Source of the DNA: a virus
Lineage: Duplodnaviria; Heunggongvirae; Uroviricota; Caudoviricetes
Virus record (IMG/VR): IMGVR_UViG_2740892372_000012
Length of the DNA stretch: 6,494 bases
Reading direction: 5' to 3' (one strand)
This document shows, one piece after another, positions 1,172 to 6,494 of this stretch (positions within the stretch are counted from its first letter, which is position 1; the number at the start of each line of letters is the position of its first letter). A program made the position numbers and the translations under genes. Under the pieces are notes generated by a model. The model was not told the DNA's origin. It saw only the letters and a program-made list of their open reading frames with translations, and did no database searches.

Positions 1172-1201
1172 AGGAAAAAACAAAACCCGCCGAAGCGGGT
1201 T
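1172..1201 (-). terminator. Rho-independent terminator downstream of hok
   Basis: Minus-strand reading: stem AACCCGC (1190-1184), loop ttcg, stem GCGGGTT, followed directly by TTGTTTTTT (complement of plus 1175-1183). GC-rich 7-bp stem plus U-tract, about 70 nt after the hok stop. Confidence 0.6.
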
Positions 1202-1269
1202 AAGTGCGGGTGCGTTGAGGATGCCTGATTCATCAGAGGTGGCGAGGGATTTCTCCCCCGCCTGGTCTC

Positions 1270-1425
1270 TTACTCCTCAGGTTCGTAAGCTGTGAAGACA
1301 GCGACCTCCGTCTGGCCGGTTCGGATTCGTACCTCGCAGAGGTCTTTCCTCGTTACCAGTGCCGTCACTATGACGGTTAAACAGATGACGATCAGGGCGA
1401 TTAACATCGCCTTTTGCTGCTTCAT
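1270..1425 (-). CDS. hokD: Hok/Gef family type I toxin (51 aa, small membrane toxin)
   Basis: Translation MKQQKAMLIALIVICLTVIVTALVTRKDLCEVRIRTGQTEVAVFTAYEPEE matches the Hok/Gef family signature (hydrophobic helix, conserved Cys, C-terminal YE motif) and, from memory, the E. coli HokD/RelF sequence. AAGGAG SD 9 nt upstream of ATG 1423-1425. The ORF track lists a 70-aa in-frame extension from ATG 1480-1482, which has its own GAGG SD 8 nt upstream. Confidence 0.88.
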   Translation of the reverse strand: MKQQKAMLIALIVICLTVIVTALVTRKDLCEVRIRTGQTEVAVFTAYEPEE

Positions 1426-1546
1426 AGCCTGCTTCTCCTTGCCTTTCGGCACGTAAGAGGCTAACCTAGATTTGCCGTTCATAGATTGAGCCTCAGATTA
1501 ATGTTAAGCGTCTTGCAGGACGCGTAATGTTAACTGGGGCTTTTCT

Positions 1547-1582
1547 CTATCTGCCGTTGGTGTTCATGCCCGAGGCAGATAG
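1547..1582 (-). other. Inverted repeat (9-bp stem, 18-nt loop) in the region upstream of hok; possible leader RNA structure
   Basis: Plus 1547-1555 ctatctgcc is the exact reverse complement of 1574-1582 ggcagatag. Hok-family mRNAs are known to carry structured regulatory elements, but the role here is inference. Confidence 0.3.
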
Positions 1583-2029
1583 CCTCAAGCACCCGCAGCT
1601 ATTCTACTTAACTTCCCATTACCTCGCCAATATGAAATCGGTCAGAAAGACAGACGTCCCATAAGGACAACAACGGAAAAAGAGATTTTGCTTGATGCTA
1701 TTTACCTCTGCACCATGAAGTTGCGCCAAAATCCCAGTGGTGATAACAGGAATTTGGTTGTTGGTGATTGGGGAAAGAAGTACGTTAGACTGTGGGTTAG
1801 TTCATTGACATGATAGTTACCTGCCTTCAATTTCCTAAGCAAGCGATGTAAACGATAATCAATATCAAATGTATTGACAGGTAAAATAATAACGATGTAC
1901 CTTTGCTGATAACATATATCAGTCTTAAATCATAATGGAGGTAGATAAAATAACTAAACACACACAACAAATTTTTTATCAGTGACATAGCATATCTTAA
2001 GCATCCTTTAATGCTCATGGGGAGAACGC

Positions 2030-2803
2030 ATGACTAAACATATGGACATTCATTGTCAAACACGCATATTTAACTCAATTAACCATGACACCAAATATAA
2101 AATATGTATTTTTACTCCAAAAAACATTAAAAAAAATAATGCAACTCTTTATATACTTGATGGGAATAGTGCCAACAATTACATTTCTGATATTCTGCCT
2201 GTTATTGATGCACTACCCAATCCACCAGTGTTAGTTACACTTGGTTATGAATCTTGGAATAACCTTAGCATTCATCGCCGTGCTTACGATTATACTCCTG
2301 ATGGTGAAAATGCTATTGTTGATAACTCTAAACCAGCATGGATCTACTTTACTGGTGGAGGAAGCCAGTCTTTCCGAGAATTATTACTAACTCAGATCAT
2401 GCCATGGGTTAGTACTATTGCTCCGAACAGTTCCAGAATCGGTATATGGGGGCACTCGCTAGGTGCTATTTTTGTGCTTGATTGCTTAAAAAATAATTCA
2501 TGCTTTAACTATTATTATATATCTGCACCATCACTTCTATGGCAGAATGAAAGAATCATCAAGATAATTAAAGATGATATATCAGAATCAAAGCACACTA
2601 AAAGTATATGCTTGCTTAACGGAAATCTTAGCCTTGATTACTCCGCATCTTTATATCCTGAAGCCATCAAAGCGGAATCTGTTTTGAGAAATATTTTGAC
2701 AGAAAAATACAGTAATTTTTCTATTGTACAATTTCCAGAGCTCAATCATCAGGAGACTTTCTCTGCTGCACTCTGGAATAGCATTATTCATTTCAGCATA
2801 TAA
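2030..2803 (+). CDS. Alpha/beta-hydrolase fold esterase (esterase D / enterochelin-esterase-like family), no signal peptide; AT-rich cargo (moron) gene
   Basis: 257-aa ORF with GGGGAG SD 5 nt upstream of ATG 2030. Nucleophile elbow GHSLG (WGHSLGAIF), upstream LYILDGNS motif resembling the YLLDG motif of the putative-esterase family, and a His near the C-terminus (ELNHQETF) consistent with a Ser-Asp-His triad. Codon usage is strongly AT-biased compared with the flanking phage genes. Confidence 0.8.
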   Translation: MTKHMDIHCQTRIFNSINHDTKYKICIFTPKNIKKNNATLYILDGNSANNYISDILPVIDALPNPPVLVTLGYESWNNLSIHRRAYDYTPDGENAIVDNSKPAWIYFTGGGSQSFRELLLTQIMPWVSTIAPNSSRIGIWGHSLGAIFVLDCLKNNSCFNYYYISAPSLLWQNERIIKIIKDDISESKHTKSICLLNGNLSLDYSASLYPEAIKAESVLRNILTEKYSNFSIVQFPELNHQETFSAALWNSIIHFSI

Positions 2804-3154
2804 CAGAAAATATGTAATCACTTTATCAATCTAGCTAACATAACTGATATCAATCCTAATGGGTCTTTGAACATATTAAAAGATAACTTCTCATTTGTAC
2901 ATTGTTGTGTTCTTAGACCCATTTCAAAAATACTATTTTTTAGATACTAATAATTACATCCATTTAGCTATCTTCTAAATACTCCTCTCAGTTTCTTCAT
3001 TGGAGCTGATTCAACTCCGGCAATGCATACTAGGATCATTTTATAAGCATACAAACAACATCCAGACTGTGAATTATTGCTATTCATTTTCTATGTATCT
3101 GCTCTTTTCCCATCCACTGAAACACCAGAATCCAAAGGTTTCATGTTATTTTCA

Positions 3155-3568
3155 CTATTCCATCATTACTCCTGTGTAAAATATCAAAACTCGCTGCATC
3201 ACTTCACTGTTACGGCACTCACTACAAATTATGTTCAATTGCCTGTCATAGCGGCGTATTTCTCCGTCTGGTAATGACCAGATAAGGTCAGGATCAACCA
3301 CAACCGGTTTCTTCAGTTTTGCCCTCGATAGTTTTTTGCGGGCGTTTTGCCAGTCCTTACGAGCCTGTTCAGATGGGAATAACCCGTAACCAGAGTTGTA
3401 TACATCGCCACTGGCAACCAGCTCTCTGGCAAGAACGCTCATCAGATATCTTGTCGCACCTGTCTTGGCTTCCAGTTGCCGTAACGTCTCGCGCCCACTC
3501 CGGCGTACTAGCTCAACAACCTGCCCTTTAATTTTTTCCCGCTCTTCCTGTGTAAATACTTTTGCCAT
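3155..3568 (-). CDS. Hypothetical phage protein (137 aa), last gene of the replication-module operon
   Basis: ATG at 3566-3568 preceded by GGAGG (complement of 3574-3578) with a 5-nt spacer; stop TAG at 3155-3157. Start lies 15 nt after the upstream gene's stop. The ORF-track start (TTG 3583) is a less likely 5-codon extension. No recognisable catalytic motif. Confidence 0.7.
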   Translation of the reverse strand: MAKVFTQEEREKIKGQVVELVRRSGRETLRQLEAKTGATRYLMSVLARELVASGDVYNSGYGLFPSEQARKDWQNARKKLSRAKLKKPVVVDPDLIWSLPDGEIRRYDRQLNIICSECRNSEVMQRVLIFYTGVMME

Positions 3569-3583
3569 AAGCGCCTCCGGCAA

Positions 3584-4354
3584 TCACTTTTCCGATACAA
3601 CACGGCGGGAAGAATCAGTAATCTGTCGAACAATATCCCGGTGCTTGTTCAGCTCCCGCAGCGCGGCGCAGACTCGCTCCCACTTCTGAACATCACTTTT
3701 CGCCCTGCGCAGCGCCAGGTTTGCCCTGCGAAGGGACGGAAAAATCAGCTCATCTGCTTGCGTTTCGGTAAACGATGGCAACGGCTGCACAATGTCCGCC
3801 ACAGTTTCTGTTTTAATTTCTTCCTGTGTTGCGGCTTCCCGGACTGGTAACGCAGCACCTGCTGGCTGAGGAAAGGCCTTACCATCACTTTCCGTTACCA
3901 GCGCGGCTTTCGGCTCTGCTGGTAAATTATCGCCCGGCATGCAGTAACGAAATTTACCGTTCTGATTAACGCGTGCCAGCCGCCCCGTTGCGGTTACCAC
4001 CGCCAGCGTGGAAGCAACCTTGCGAGTACTGACACCGAACTTACCCGCCAGTTCCTCACACGTTTTAGCCCCATCCTGACCGATAAACTCAATCATCATG
4101 TCTGCGGTAACTTTTTGTTCGACCTCCCCGGTCAGCATATCCTGTGCTTCAGATTTTACTGGCCGCTCTTCGGTTACCCGGGATTCACCTTCGCCAGCCA
4201 GAAACCAGGTGTGACCAGTTTTATCAACGACGCCATTTCTTTTGAGTTCCCACAGCTCGTTGACAGCCTCTTCACGACTGATTCCAAGGCGAGCTGCCAC
4301 CACATGTGAAGAGGCTTTTTTCAGTGCTTTCAGTGCGTCAGATACGGTTTCCAT
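3584..4354 (-). CDS. Hypothetical phage protein (256 aa) with two N-terminal regions resembling winged-helix/HTH segments
   Basis: ATG 4352-4354 with GGAGG (complement of 4363-4367) 8 nt upstream; stop TGA 3584-3586. Starts 21 nt downstream of the DnaC-like stop. Two similar segments (SDALKALKKASSHVVAARLGISREEAVNELWELKRNGVVDKTG and GAKTCEELAGKFGVSTRKVASTLAVVTATGRLARVNQNGK) suggest tandem wHTH-like domains; function unknown. Confidence 0.75.
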   Translation of the reverse strand: METVSDALKALKKASSHVVAARLGISREEAVNELWELKRNGVVDKTGHTWFLAGEGESRVTEERPVKSEAQDMLTGEVEQKVTADMMIEFIGQDGAKTCEELAGKFGVSTRKVASTLAVVTATGRLARVNQNGKFRYCMPGDNLPAEPKAALVTESDGKAFPQPAGAALPVREAATQEEIKTETVADIVQPLPSFTETQADELIFPSLRRANLALRRAKSDVQKWERVCAALRELNKHRDIVRQITDSSRRVVSEK

Positions 4355-4375
4355 TAAAATTTCCTCCGGACAAAA

Positions 4376-5122
4376 TTACTTCACAACCCTCATATTGCTG
4401 ACATTTGGACGCCAGCTATCCCAGTTAAACGTCACCCATCGACCACCGTTCATGGTCATGCGGTCCATAATCCTCTCACCAAGAAGCGTACTCATTGCGG
4501 CATGATTCAGGTTTGTTAACATCCCGACACTGCACAGTGATGCTGTCCGGCGATCAATTATCTGGTGTAATACCACCTGCTCGTTTTTCGTCTCCCGCTG
4601 AACGCCTATTTCATCCAGGACCAGCAAATCAACACTGCAAAGCTCCTGTAAAAATTTTTCCCCGGATTTGCCGTTGTCGTAGCTGTCATGCAACACGCTC
4701 ATGACATCAGACACGGTGACGATAATCACGCTGCGCCCCTTCGCCATCAGCCGGTTACCCATCGCCGCTGCAAGGTGATTTTTCCCGGTGCCGGTTTTAC
4801 CGCTGAACACAAAATTCGTGCACCCGGTCATCAGTTCGTCAGCTATGGATTTGGCCTGGCTCAGCGCGTATTTTTGCCCGTCGTTCTGCACCTGATAATT
4901 CGCAAACGAGCATTTGCTGTGCAGAGGCTGGATGCCCGAACGATTCAGGATTTTTTCCACCCGCAACTGGTGATTCTGGCGGTTAATCTCCTCGCTGCGT
5001 TTTCGTCCTTCAGCAAGTTGCCATTCCCGCCACTCCTCCACCGTCCGGTACGGTGGAACCGACGCCGGTGGTGCAAGTCTGCGAATACGTTCAAGAACCC
5101 CGGCTGCCGCAATGTTTTTCAT
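4376..5122 (-). CDS. DnaC-like replicative helicase loader (AAA+ ATPase), prophage paralog of DnaC
   Basis: 248-aa ORF with Walker A FVFSGKTGTGKNHLAAAM and Walker B DLLVLDEIG, colinear over its full length with recalled E. coli DnaC (RSGIxPLH, CSFxNY, GMLTN, LLGERxMDRM, FNWDSWR). ATG 5120-5122 lies 6 nt after the initiator stop, with GGGGGTGA upstream (translational coupling). Confidence 0.9.
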   Translation of the reverse strand: MKNIAAAGVLERIRRLAPPASVPPYRTVEEWREWQLAEGRKRSEEINRQNHQLRVEKILNRSGIQPLHSKCSFANYQVQNDGQKYALSQAKSIADELMTGCTNFVFSGKTGTGKNHLAAAMGNRLMAKGRSVIIVTVSDVMSVLHDSYDNGKSGEKFLQELCSVDLLVLDEIGVQRETKNEQVVLHQIIDRRTASLCSVGMLTNLNHAAMSTLLGERIMDRMTMNGGRWVTFNWDSWRPNVSNMRVVK

Positions 5123-5128
5123 GCCACA

Positions 5129-6223
5129 TCACCCCCTGAATCCCGGCGGAATTTCGGTATCCGGTTCAGAAATATGATTCACACAACGCTGGTTGTTCGT
5201 GCCGCTTACCGGGAGCAACCAGGGGTTTTCAAAATTCCGGTCCGGCCCAAAAAACGTCGTCGCTCGCTGAACAAATTCCGTTCCCGCTTTCCCGGTCGCC
5301 GCCAGGTATCTCGCGTAACGCCTCACACCATCCAGCATGGTCTCTGGTGGCACCCCCTCGCGCAATCTGGCCTTCCAGGCACTGAATGCGGATTTCTTCG
5401 GGTTTGCTCCGGCACGCAACGGGTACTCCCGCCAGACCTGTTCGAACACATCCGGATAATCCACTCGTCCCACAGACAGCCCGGTGTTTTCCGGGACTAC
5501 CCGATCGGCTTCCCGCTGAATGGCGGAATCGGCTTCAGGCTGCTGCAGTTGGTGTGATTGCTTCGGCCTTGCGGTCATCACCTGCTGCACAGCGCCCGAA
5601 TCGGCTTTCAGCGCATACGCTGAATCGGCTTCCGGTGTCGTGCCTGCTGGCTGACCAGGATTGACGGTCTGAACATCCCCTGCCTGGTTCGTGGCGTTTT
5701 TTACGCCATGGACCATAGTGTTTTGATCTTCTTGATCTGTATCTTTATCTGTATCTTTATCTGTATCTTTATCTGTATCTTTATCTGTCGTGACTCGTCG
5801 TGACATGTGCATGACATTTCGTGACGCGCCGTGACAATCGCCATTTTGTTCCCGCTTTCTTTCCCTCTCTCGCTGCGCCCTCTTGCGCTCTGCAGGAGAT
5901 TTTGCGGTTTGCGAAATATTGCCGTTGTCCTCTTTAAGCACCTGGCGTTTTTCCCATCCAGTGATTAAATCACCATCAAGTACCCGCCCCTGCATCGTCT
6001 GCAAAATTGAATCAATTACCTCTTCTGTCACGTCGAGCGCACTTGCCAAATCTTCTGTCGTGACATCAATGTGACCTCGCGTGACATTTCGTGACGCGCT
6101 CACCAGGAGGTGGATATACACTGCCATCACTGTTGCAATTGGCTGCCCTGACACCCTGGCAATTGTTCGCCACTTAGGGTCATTTGGCATGTCATGCCAT
6201 AATCTGAGCCAGGCGTTAGCCAT
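5129..6223 (-). CDS. Phage replication initiation protein: N-terminal DNA-binding (replisome-organizer-like) domain, (DKDT)n linker, C-terminal DnaT-like (primosomal protein I-like) domain
   Basis: C-terminus ...NHISEPDTEIPPGFRG matches the recalled C-terminus of E. coli DnaT (...SEPDSQIPPGFRG). Gene order DnaT-like then DnaC-like mirrors the host dnaTC operon. Start taken as ATG 6221-6223 (GAGG SD, 5-nt spacer) rather than the GTG at 6229 used in the ORF track. Stop TGA 5129-5131. Confidence 0.85.
   Translation of the reverse strand: MANAWLRLWHDMPNDPKWRTIARVSGQPIATVMAVYIHLLVSASRNVTRGHIDVTTEDLASALDVTEEVIDSILQTMQGRVLDGDLITGWEKRQVLKEDNGNISQTAKSPAERKRAQRERERKREQNGDCHGASRNVMHMSRRVTTDKDTDKDTDKDTDKDTDQEDQNTMVHGVKNATNQAGDVQTVNPGQPAGTTPEADSAYALKADSGAVQQVMTARPKQSHQLQQPEADSAIQREADRVVPENTGLSVGRVDYPDVFEQVWREYPLRAGANPKKSAFSAWKARLREGVPPETMLDGVRRYARYLAATGKAGTEFVQRATTFFGPDRNFENPWLLPVSGTNNQRCVNHISEPDTEIPPGFRG
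5735..5788. repeat. Perfect tandem repeat, 12-nt unit atctttatctgt x4 plus a partial copy, in frame inside the initiator gene (encodes DKDT repeats)
   Basis: Plus 5741-5788 is four exact copies of atctttatctgt, preceded by a partial unit at 5735-5740. The region is AT-rich, with two GATC sites just upstream (5724-5727, 5734-5737). Confidence 0.9.
5788..5835. repeat. Cluster of five phased (G/A)TGAC direct repeats at about 10-bp spacing (putative iterons, cluster 1)
   Basis: tcGTGAC at 5788-5794, 5798-5804, 5819-5825; gcATGAC at 5809-5815; ccGTGAC at 5829-5835. Spacing 10/11/10/10 bp, about one helical turn. The motif falls in different codon phases of the overlapping initiator ORF, so it is conserved at the DNA level, not the peptide level. 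Confidence 0.6.
6058..6095. repeat. Second cluster of four phased GTGAC direct repeats (putative iterons, cluster 2)
   Basis: GTGAC at 6060-6064, 6071-6075, 6081-6085, 6091-6095. The 18-mer tgacatttcgtgacgcgc is identical at 5812-5829 and 6082-6099, and both clusters are preceded by the same ctgtcgtgac 10-mer (5785-5794, 6055-6064). Confidence 0.6.
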
Positions 6224-6488
6224 ACTCACCTCTTCTGATACCGAATCTTTTTACTCACGAGTTGCCGGAAGCGATTCGATATGGCTATTATCACTCAATG
6301 CACTGCCACAGCATTTCCTGCCGGGCCACCACGGTTCATCTGATTGAAACCGGCGATTGCCACTGCGACAAAATCATCAGCGTCTCTCACCAGTCGCTCC
6401 CGCGTCTCCACCAGCTCCCGAAAATAAGCTGAACTGAACCGCCCCGGGAATCCTGGAGACTAAACTTCCTGAGAAAGAGGTAAACAGG
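6224..6488. promoter_or_regulatory. Divergent intergenic control region between the leftward replication operon and a rightward gene starting at 6489
   Basis: No convincing ORF on either strand over about 265 bp. Plus-strand AAGAGG (6475-6480) followed 8 nt later by ATG 6489, with the gene running off the window. Candidate minus-strand -10 GATAAT (complement of 6287-6292) upstream of the initiator. Promoter elements are not confidently resolved. Confidence 0.35.
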
Positions 6489-6494
6489 ATGACT

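Follow-up and report, generated by a model that had tools for sequence, protein, structure and literature searches.

What is the single gene of an AT-rich insert in a lambdoid prophage, and what might it do for the bacterium that carries it? The question is raised by a 6,494-nucleotide stretch of tailed-phage DNA (Caudoviricetes; IMG/VR record IMGVR_UViG_2740892372_000012), which in its full length we call the window. Its sequence is 99.8 to 100% identical to a lambdoid prophage region in 447 complete Escherichia coli genomes. Between a hokD/sok locus and a DUF977 gene it holds a low-GC cassette, and the sole open reading frame (ORF) called as a gene in this insert lies at positions 2030 to 2803 on the plus strand. 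It encodes a leaderless serine esterase of 257 amino acids (WP_000160654.1). The RefSeq label is just "alpha/beta hydrolase," and the only PHROGs match is phrog_8493, labeled "unknown function." A first-pass annotation, made from the sequence alone, had described the product as unlike periplasmic siderophore esterases and its substrate as unknown. Our results contradict this. IroE, which hydrolyzes the trilactones salmochelin and enterobactin and belongs to the iroA cluster, ranks first by sequence and by structure, the catalytic set is conserved, and the nearest relatives of the protein are encoded in iro and ent loci.

When the esterase was compared with solved structures by phmmer, IroE (2gzr) matched across residues 8 to 253 of 257 with an E value of 5e-26. 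The next matches were BES/BesA (9e-13), PfeE (1.5e-11), and fungal EstA (1.5e-8). An AlphaFold2 model built on 48 family members had a predicted local distance difference test score (pLDDT) of 88.8 and a predicted template modeling score (pTM) of 0.90. We searched the PDB with this model by using Foldseek, and ranks 1 to 30 were all siderophore esterases of the IroE/BesA/PfeE/EstB group, with template modeling (TM) scores of 0.71 to 0.80. IroE was the first match (TM, 0.78 to 0.80). Fes, esterase D, and the feruloyl esterases were approximately 7 to 8 orders of magnitude weaker in E value, with Fes at rank 32 or lower and esterase D and the feruloyl esterases at ranks 34 and below (TM, 0.53 to 0.58). 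Antigen 85 was absent among the top 50 matches. The fold is an IroE-type alpha/beta-hydrolase without an N-terminal lid domain, and there was no match to Enterochelin_N (PF11806); only the catalytic domain is present. The esterase almost certainly belongs to the IroE-like siderophore esterase family. Its group is that of IroE, and not esterase D, Fes/IroD, antigen 85, or the carbohydrate esterases.

The residues expected of such an enzyme are in place. Two motifs that the first-pass annotation had pointed out, a GHSLG nucleophile elbow and an LDG motif, are at G141-H-S143-L-G145 and L43-D44-G45. In alignments of 13 and 48 family members, D44, R84, G141-H-S143, G145, and H240 are invariant; the serine and histidine therefore survive proper alignment. 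Three other family-invariant positions (D87, T89, and G110) are also kept. By sequence alignment, R84 and D44 appear to correspond to Arg130 and Asp90 of IroE, which Larsen et al. reportedly described in 2006 as forming its unusual oxyanion site. The catalytic dyad of IroE is Ser189/His287 (PMC10515146), and these residues align with S143 and H240.

We also asked where such an enzyme would work. No signal peptide had been noticed in the first pass, and none was found here: over the first 45 residues, Kyte-Doolittle hydrophobicity reaches a maximum of 0.35 (averaged over 11 residues), and there is no signal-like segment. A longer N terminus is ruled out by an in-frame TAA at 2009 to 2011, 6 codons before the ATG. 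Searching the window by tblastn with the N termini of relatives revealed no leader remnant upstream of 2030. In the structural model only residues 1 to 6 are disordered, and the first beta-strand begins at residue 9. Most relatives are different, because 185 of 228 have an N-terminal extension of at least 26 residues with a hydrophobic segment, and only 16 of the 228 start level with the window esterase. All five of the closest relatives have a leader and a conserved PLGPNIADTGS segment, both of which are missing here. This suggests that the loss of the leader is probably secondary. The protein also has five cysteines, none of them hit by the differences that distinguish the O157:H16 allele. 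Among 171 relatives with a leader, the median for the equivalent region is 0 cysteines, and four cysteines or more are present in just 2 of these proteins. Five cysteines fit a long stay in a reducing compartment and not a recent truncation. With neither signal nor anchor, the enzyme would be made and kept in the cytoplasm of the lysogen. Judging from these sequence features, it would work inside the cell, probably as the product of an iron-acquisition accessory gene.

The relatives are distant. An exhaustive search of 1.84 billion representative proteins returned no match above 33% identity outside the esterase's own E. coli cluster, and no relative between 33% and 87% identity. The family was visible only in this exhaustive search; a word-indexed protein search returned the E. 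coli copies and a single 31% match. There was no close relative in 185,579 GTDB species genomes. A near-identity DNA search of deposited phage genomes gave no match, and the sole tblastn matches in those genomes were remote iroE-type genes, about 29% identical, from records resembling bacterial contigs or fragments. The nearest relatives have informative neighbors. A Pantoea relative (P0182) is encoded in the order TonB receptor, esterase, ABC exporter, glycosyltransferase, and Enterochelin_N esterase, which is an iroA cluster arranged as iroN-iroE-iroC-iroB...iroD. The gene for a second relative (P0020) adjoins entE/B/A-type genes and two TonB-dependent receptor genes, and that for a leaderless one (P0114) adjoins a FecCD/ABC/binding-protein importer.

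The first-pass annotation had judged by eye that the esterase gene sits in an AT-rich island, and computation confirmed it. The GC content is 0.344 for positions 1651 to 3154, compared with 0.533 for 1 to 1650 and 0.522 for 3155 to 6494 (binomial z, approximately -14). The third-position GC content (GC3) of the esterase coding sequence is 0.283, compared with 0.48 to 0.67 in five neighboring genes, and the sliding GC profile drops to 0.29 to 0.36 from about 1800 to about 3100. To place the edges, we used two reference sites: an empty one in E. coli B (L003), where hokD and the DUF977 gene are adjacent, and one occupied by queH (L004). On the left, homology to insert-free prophages stops at about 1649 to 1672. 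On the right, it restarts at 3177 in the QueH-carrying prophage or at 3272 in E. coli B. The low-GC esterase cassette common to all alleles, which comprises the regulatory region, the coding sequence, and a 3' spacer, runs from 1777 to about 3176 on the plus strand (GC, 0.31 to 0.37; end-to-end alignment with the O157:H16 allele begins at 1777). Therefore, the island earlier placed at 1500 to 3154 is real, but position 1500 falls inside the conserved hok/sok locus. No convincing flanking direct repeats were found as a signature of insertion. We did not accept as a gene a 63-amino-acid ORF on the minus strand at 1827 to 2018, which lacks both a family match and a RefSeq annotation and is put out of frame by a 1-nucleotide indel in the O157:H16 allele.

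Between the conserved left flank and the cassette lies a variable junction segment (1650 to 1776), in which the homology with the empty and QueH sites breaks off. On its minus strand are 28 codons left from a phage antirepressor (Ant/ORF6N) gene (1685 to 1768), located between sok and the cassette. RefSeq annotates this remnant as a partial pseudogene, and by blastn it is 76 to 83% identical to annotated Ant/ORF6N genes. Its presence indicates that the slot held other cargo before. In E. coli B there is nothing at the hokD-DUF977 junction (L003, 3226 to 3488), and in other E. coli prophages it is occupied by queH, which encodes epoxyqueuosine reductase (L004, 3464 to 4129). A phage-borne queH at this junction is an unusual moron in itself. 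The esterase cassette is present in 471 of 5,426 complete E. coli genomes, and at least 694 genomes have both flanks close together with the cassette absent. The history of the slot is layered, and it is a true hotspot for cargo; the cassette is a phage moron: it is discrete, deviant in composition, and absent from related phages. The first-pass proposal of a moron that was gained by horizontal transfer and occupies a hotspot was borne out, and the gene is not universal in its prophage family. The orientation was also borne out, since the esterase gene is on the plus strand and the phage genes, including the replication operon, are on the minus strand.

Four alleles of the esterase were found among IMG/VR prophage contigs and complete genomes, at 100, 92, 90, and 89.5% protein identity. 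Each is exactly 257 amino acids long and keeps the catalytic residues. All are in the same hokD-DUF977 slot, with diverged neighbors (DUF977 proteins 71 to 100% identical and different replication modules). Therefore, the cassette has been retained through much mosaic exchange. The pairwise ratio of nonsynonymous to synonymous substitution rates (dN/dS) is 0.16 to 0.25 at a dS of 0.12 to 0.32, which shows that the gene is under purifying selection. Conservation between alleles is 91 to 93% in the coding sequence and 86 to 99% in the 250 nucleotides upstream but only 75 to 78% in the 3' spacer, which diverges at about the synonymous (neutral) rate. Of the 471 cassette copies, 458 are at least 99% identical. 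The carriers are enterohemorrhagic E. coli (EHEC) strains, including O157:H7, O145:H28, and O45. As a separate observation, when positions 290 to 1313 of one allele (L020) are aligned with 1777 to 2803 of the window, the upstream regions are 98 to 99% identical but the coding sequences only 92.6%. This contrast suggests that a joint was formed by recombination within the cassette.

The region upstream of the gene has several candidate regulatory signals. A Fur-box-like site, GTAAACGATAATCAATATC, is a candidate iron-dependent operator at 1848 to 1866 on the plus strand, 164 nucleotides before the ATG. It matches 15 of 19 consensus positions, which makes it the best Fur-consensus match of the whole window, and a score of at least 15 was reached in 13 of 2,000 composition-matched random upstream regions (about 0.65%). 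Two candidate sigma-70 promoters follow on the same strand: TTGACA-N18-TACCTT at 1874 to 1903, read by eye from the sequence, and ATAACA-N16-CATAAT at 1909 to 1936, from a consensus scan. Neither differs in the O157:H16 allele. Promoter-like sites are not in excess (9, compared with 7.4 in shuffled sequences), and so both are only candidates. A Shine-Dalgarno sequence, GGAG, read by eye at 2021 to 2024 (plus strand), is 5 nucleotides before the ATG and is kept in the O157:H16 allele. Downstream of the gene, a candidate terminator hairpin on the plus strand (2858 to 2945) has arms at 2858 to 2873 and 2908 to 2923, an inverted repeat of 16 nucleotides with 88% complementarity, followed by a T-rich run. 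Its RNA fold has an energy of -26.7 kcal/mol (z of -2.9 against shuffled sequences), but the hairpin went uncalled in a strict scan for terminators. H-NS is a common silencer of AT-rich islands in E. coli. We also noticed a palindrome, CTGATA-N5-TATCAG, at 1906 to 1922, which is perfectly conserved and overlaps the second candidate promoter. By eye it resembles the 7-1-7 arrangement of Fur half-sites, with about 11 of 14 positions matching, and it could be an operator.

On balance, we lean toward the view that the cassette is a moron in the ren-to-nin slot that supplies a cytoplasmic, BesA-like trilactone siderophore esterase, maybe regulated by Fur, from its own promoter. Transcription would run opposite to that of the phage early operon, and the promoter would perhaps respond to iron through Fur. 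With chemistry like that of IroE, Ser143, activated by His240 in a dyad without an acid residue, would attack a cyclic polyester backbone of a siderophore at its ester bonds, and Arg84, held by Asp44, would stabilize the oxyanion. Enterobactin, through its tri-serine lactone, or a related catecholate would be the likeliest substrate. In the cytoplasm, the enzyme might serve in the way that BesA does in Gram-positive bacteria, or as a second Fes. The outcome would be iron freed from imported ferric catecholates or linearization of freshly made siderophore.

Several points weigh against this assignment and role. The match to the Pfam family PF00756 ("Putative esterase") is below threshold, at 17 bits compared with a cutoff of 22 (E = 0.005), and no NCBIfam model is matched. 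Nearly all of the relatives pass PF00756, so the window esterase is just a divergent member. Its identity to any characterized esterase is only about 27 to 33%, and therefore its substrate specificity could have shifted. It is unlinked to any receptor, transporter, or biosynthesis gene, its neighbors being hokD/sok and the DUF977 gene. E. coli already has a cytoplasmic Fes, which makes the benefit of a second enzyme questionable. The Fur-box-like site matches only 14 of 19 positions in the divergent alleles, and it is upstream of both candidate promoters and overlaps neither. In one IMG/VR copy (L026, 6001 to 6770), a 1-nucleotide deletion destroys the esterase frame, which indicates that loss of function does occur and that the gene can be lost. 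Many of the carrier prophages are degraded by insertion sequence (IS) elements and have frameshifted morphogenesis genes. Finally, our literature search found no publication on this gene.

Some of these points would fit an IroE-fold esterase that was recruited to another small-molecule ester or lactone, a phage or host metabolite, so that the siderophore link is one of ancestry only. Such a shift would be in keeping with the solo gene without iron-uptake neighbors, the score under the Pfam gathering threshold, the lack of relatives between 33% and 87% identity or in the GTDB species genomes, and a location that is shifted compared with the nearest, leader-bearing clade. However, every characterized member of the structural group (IroE, PfeE, BesA, and fungal EstA/EstB) cleaves siderophore ester bonds. 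Also, the unusual Arg/Asp oxyanion pair is retained together with D87, T89, and G110, and there is a Fur-box-like site upstream. We regard recruitment to a nonsiderophore substrate as unlikely, though deserving of serious consideration. It is also conceivable that the same enzyme acts outside the cytoplasm, after prophage lysis or nonclassical export (for example, type III secretion), where it would degrade environmental or periplasmic siderophores. Its closest relatives are exported, lysis genes are present in the same prophage, and the carriers are EHEC strains, which have genes for the LEE (locus of enterocyte effacement) type III secretion system and in which low-GC prophage cargo often encodes effectors. 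However, a fold that starts at residue 9 would leave no room for a typical secretion signal of 20 to 30 residues, and the five cysteines suit a reducing compartment. The gene is directed away from the lytic operons, an orientation typical of morons expressed in the lysogen, and many of the host prophages are defective (IS insertions and frameshifted morphogenesis genes). Action outside the cytoplasm is therefore quite improbable in our estimation. We set aside the idea that the esterase is a type III effector on the grounds just given, and also the idea that it is a defense gene; it matched no PADLOC defense model at an E value of 1 or less.

The cassette might instead carry a decaying, nonfunctional iroE-like relic, which lost its 5' end on capture and has survived only by hitchhiking in EHEC clones that expanded recently. 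The leader and the PLGPNIADTGS segment of the nearest relatives are both missing, one copy is frameshifted (L026), and the near identity of 458 of the 471 copies is by itself weak evidence of constraint. Even so, the dN/dS values between the divergent alleles are low, all of these alleles have 257 amino acids and intact catalytic residues, and the confident, compact model needs no missing N-terminal element. The Shine-Dalgarno sequence is good, the upstream region is conserved, and alleles sit beside different replication modules, with the cassette kept through mosaic exchange. These features make a relic hard to credit. A trilactone siderophore esterase active in the lysogen cytoplasm is thus the reading that we carry forward.

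A more far-reaching version of that reading is speculative, and we think it rather doubtful: a phage may have captured an IroE-type esterase and retooled it for the cytoplasm, with loss of the leader and gain of cysteines, to yield a factor for fitness or virulence, under Fur control and so far unrecognized, in O157:H7, O145:H28, and related EHEC. If this were true, then lysogens without iroA would gain a means of iron piracy or siderophore remodeling, such as the use of foreign trilactone catecholates, and exported, linearized enterobactin might behave differently toward host lipocalin-2. Prophages are the source of much EHEC virulence and fitness cargo, most of it unannotated. What is new here is that a gene labeled as an alpha/beta hydrolase or as having unknown function is now placed in the siderophore esterase family. 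That family is known, and IroE-like, but this member is leaderless, cysteine-rich, phage-borne, solo, and highly divergent. If it is active, then strains such as O157:H7, O145, and O45 would have an enzyme for iron acquisition that a phage supplies, and the case would also be an example of an exported enzyme that turned cytoplasmic after phage capture. If it is inactive or has another substrate, then it would be a routine moron. We consider the esterase cassette to be a testable candidate for prophage-borne iron acquisition in EHEC and not a new kind of system.

The prophage around the cassette is lambdoid, and all of its genes in the window are on the minus strand. To the right of the cassette are the genes for a DUF977/Ren-like protein of 137 amino acids (3155 to 3568; Pfam DUF977, E = 4e-27; phrog_142, "Ren-like exclusion protein"), a DUF1627 protein (3584 to 4354), a DnaC-like loader (4376 to 5122), and a phage replisome organizer (5129 to 6229). 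To the left, and outside the insert, are the sok antisense RNA and hok leader region (1420 to 1594, minus strand; Rfam RF01794, 107 bits compared with a gathering score of 59), which is 94 to 97% identical in insert-free prophages, and the hokD toxin coding sequence (1270 to 1425; Pfam HOK_GEF, E = 3e-23; labeled hokD in RefSeq). Beyond hokD/sok in the minus-strand gene order are a small ORF and then DUF968. Just downstream of hokD, at 1180 to 1261 (minus strand), is a weak, subthreshold Rfam match to the Hfq-binding small RNA isrK (27 bits compared with a gathering score of 50; E = 0.008). Inside the replisome organizer gene, a 12-nucleotide tandem repeat, TCTTTATCTGTA, extends from 5730 to 5788 in 4.9 copies with 97% matches and encodes TDKD repeats; by analogy with lambda O, these may be replication origin iterons. 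The DUF1627 protein has weak winged-helix (helix-turn-helix) matches and faint PADLOC matches to Csa3/CARF-type models (E, approximately 1e-3), and the latter probably reflect the helix-turn-helix only.

It had been suggested in the first pass that the insertion altered the C terminus of the DUF977 protein. This has weak support. A mosaic joint does fall in the last approximately 6 codons of the window gene, where the protein ends in ...YTGVMME*, compared with ...YTGVMME(Q) in the O157:H16 allele and ...YQGNVRYFRRY* in the QueH-type prophage. However, the window protein matches Pfam DUF977 through profile position 131 of 134, and so the tail was exchanged for a different short one, with neither truncation nor fusion. 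The DUF977 version that is plainly shortened is that of E. coli B. In O145 strain RM9872 the prophage adjoins yccA, and the O157:H7 copy carries an "ECs1072 family" gene, which identifies the prophage as Sakai Sp4 type; within Sp4, the esterase locus is a few genes downstream of ECs1072. In the O157:H7 strain PV15-279 (L028, 15506 to 18369), ISEc8, an IS66-family element, splits the DUF977 gene beside the esterase gene, and several morphogenesis genes are frameshifted; the carrier prophage in that strain is therefore defective.

How does this cassette compare with systems that are already known? As a piece of phage DNA it is like other lambdoid ren-nin morons in its deviant GC content, opposite orientation, candidate promoter and terminator of its own, and presence/absence polymorphism, and in sharing its slot with alternative cargo (QueH and the Ant remnant). 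It differs in that the cargo is a siderophore esterase homologue, of which we found no report as phage cargo in the literature. As an enzyme, it would share a compartment and substrate class with Fes/IroD, which belong to the same broad PF00756 superfamily. However, Fes/IroD proteins use a Ser-His-Glu triad and carry Enterochelin_N as an N-terminal domain (PMC10515146), and their structural match to the window esterase is much weaker (E, approximately 1e-9; target-normalized TM, 0.47). PfeE of Pseudomonas is in the IroE-like fold family and takes Foldseek ranks 3 to 12. PfeE and Cee of Campylobacter both hydrolyze ferric enterobactin, both are periplasmic, and pfeE adjoins the TonB-dependent receptor gene pfeA (PMC8001512), whereas the window gene is leaderless and unlinked to a receptor gene.

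The closest likeness is to IroE itself. Nearly the whole crystallized chain (PDB 2GZR/2GZS) is aligned, with a TM score of 0.80 to 0.81 when normalized to IroE, and both proteins have the Arg/Asp pair and a Ser-His dyad whose serine is in a GHSxG elbow. Sequence identity to IroE is nevertheless only about 27 to 33%. The window esterase lacks the N-terminal segment of approximately 46 residues that includes the membrane anchor of IroE, which implies that it is not periplasmic. It also differs from IroE in its five cysteines and in being a solo prophage gene outside iroBCDEN. The Bacillus ferri-bacillibactin esterase BesA/BES (PDB 2QM0) is in the same fold group, at Foldseek rank 2, and is also leaderless. 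BesA is cytoplasmic and frees iron from an imported tri-ester catecholate. It is only about 20% identical to the window esterase, with a sequence match confined to residues 20 to 189, and it is chromosomally encoded in a Gram-positive host, where besA is linked to siderophore uptake genes. Even so, by analogy of fold and presumed location, BesA appears to be the best functional model for the window esterase.

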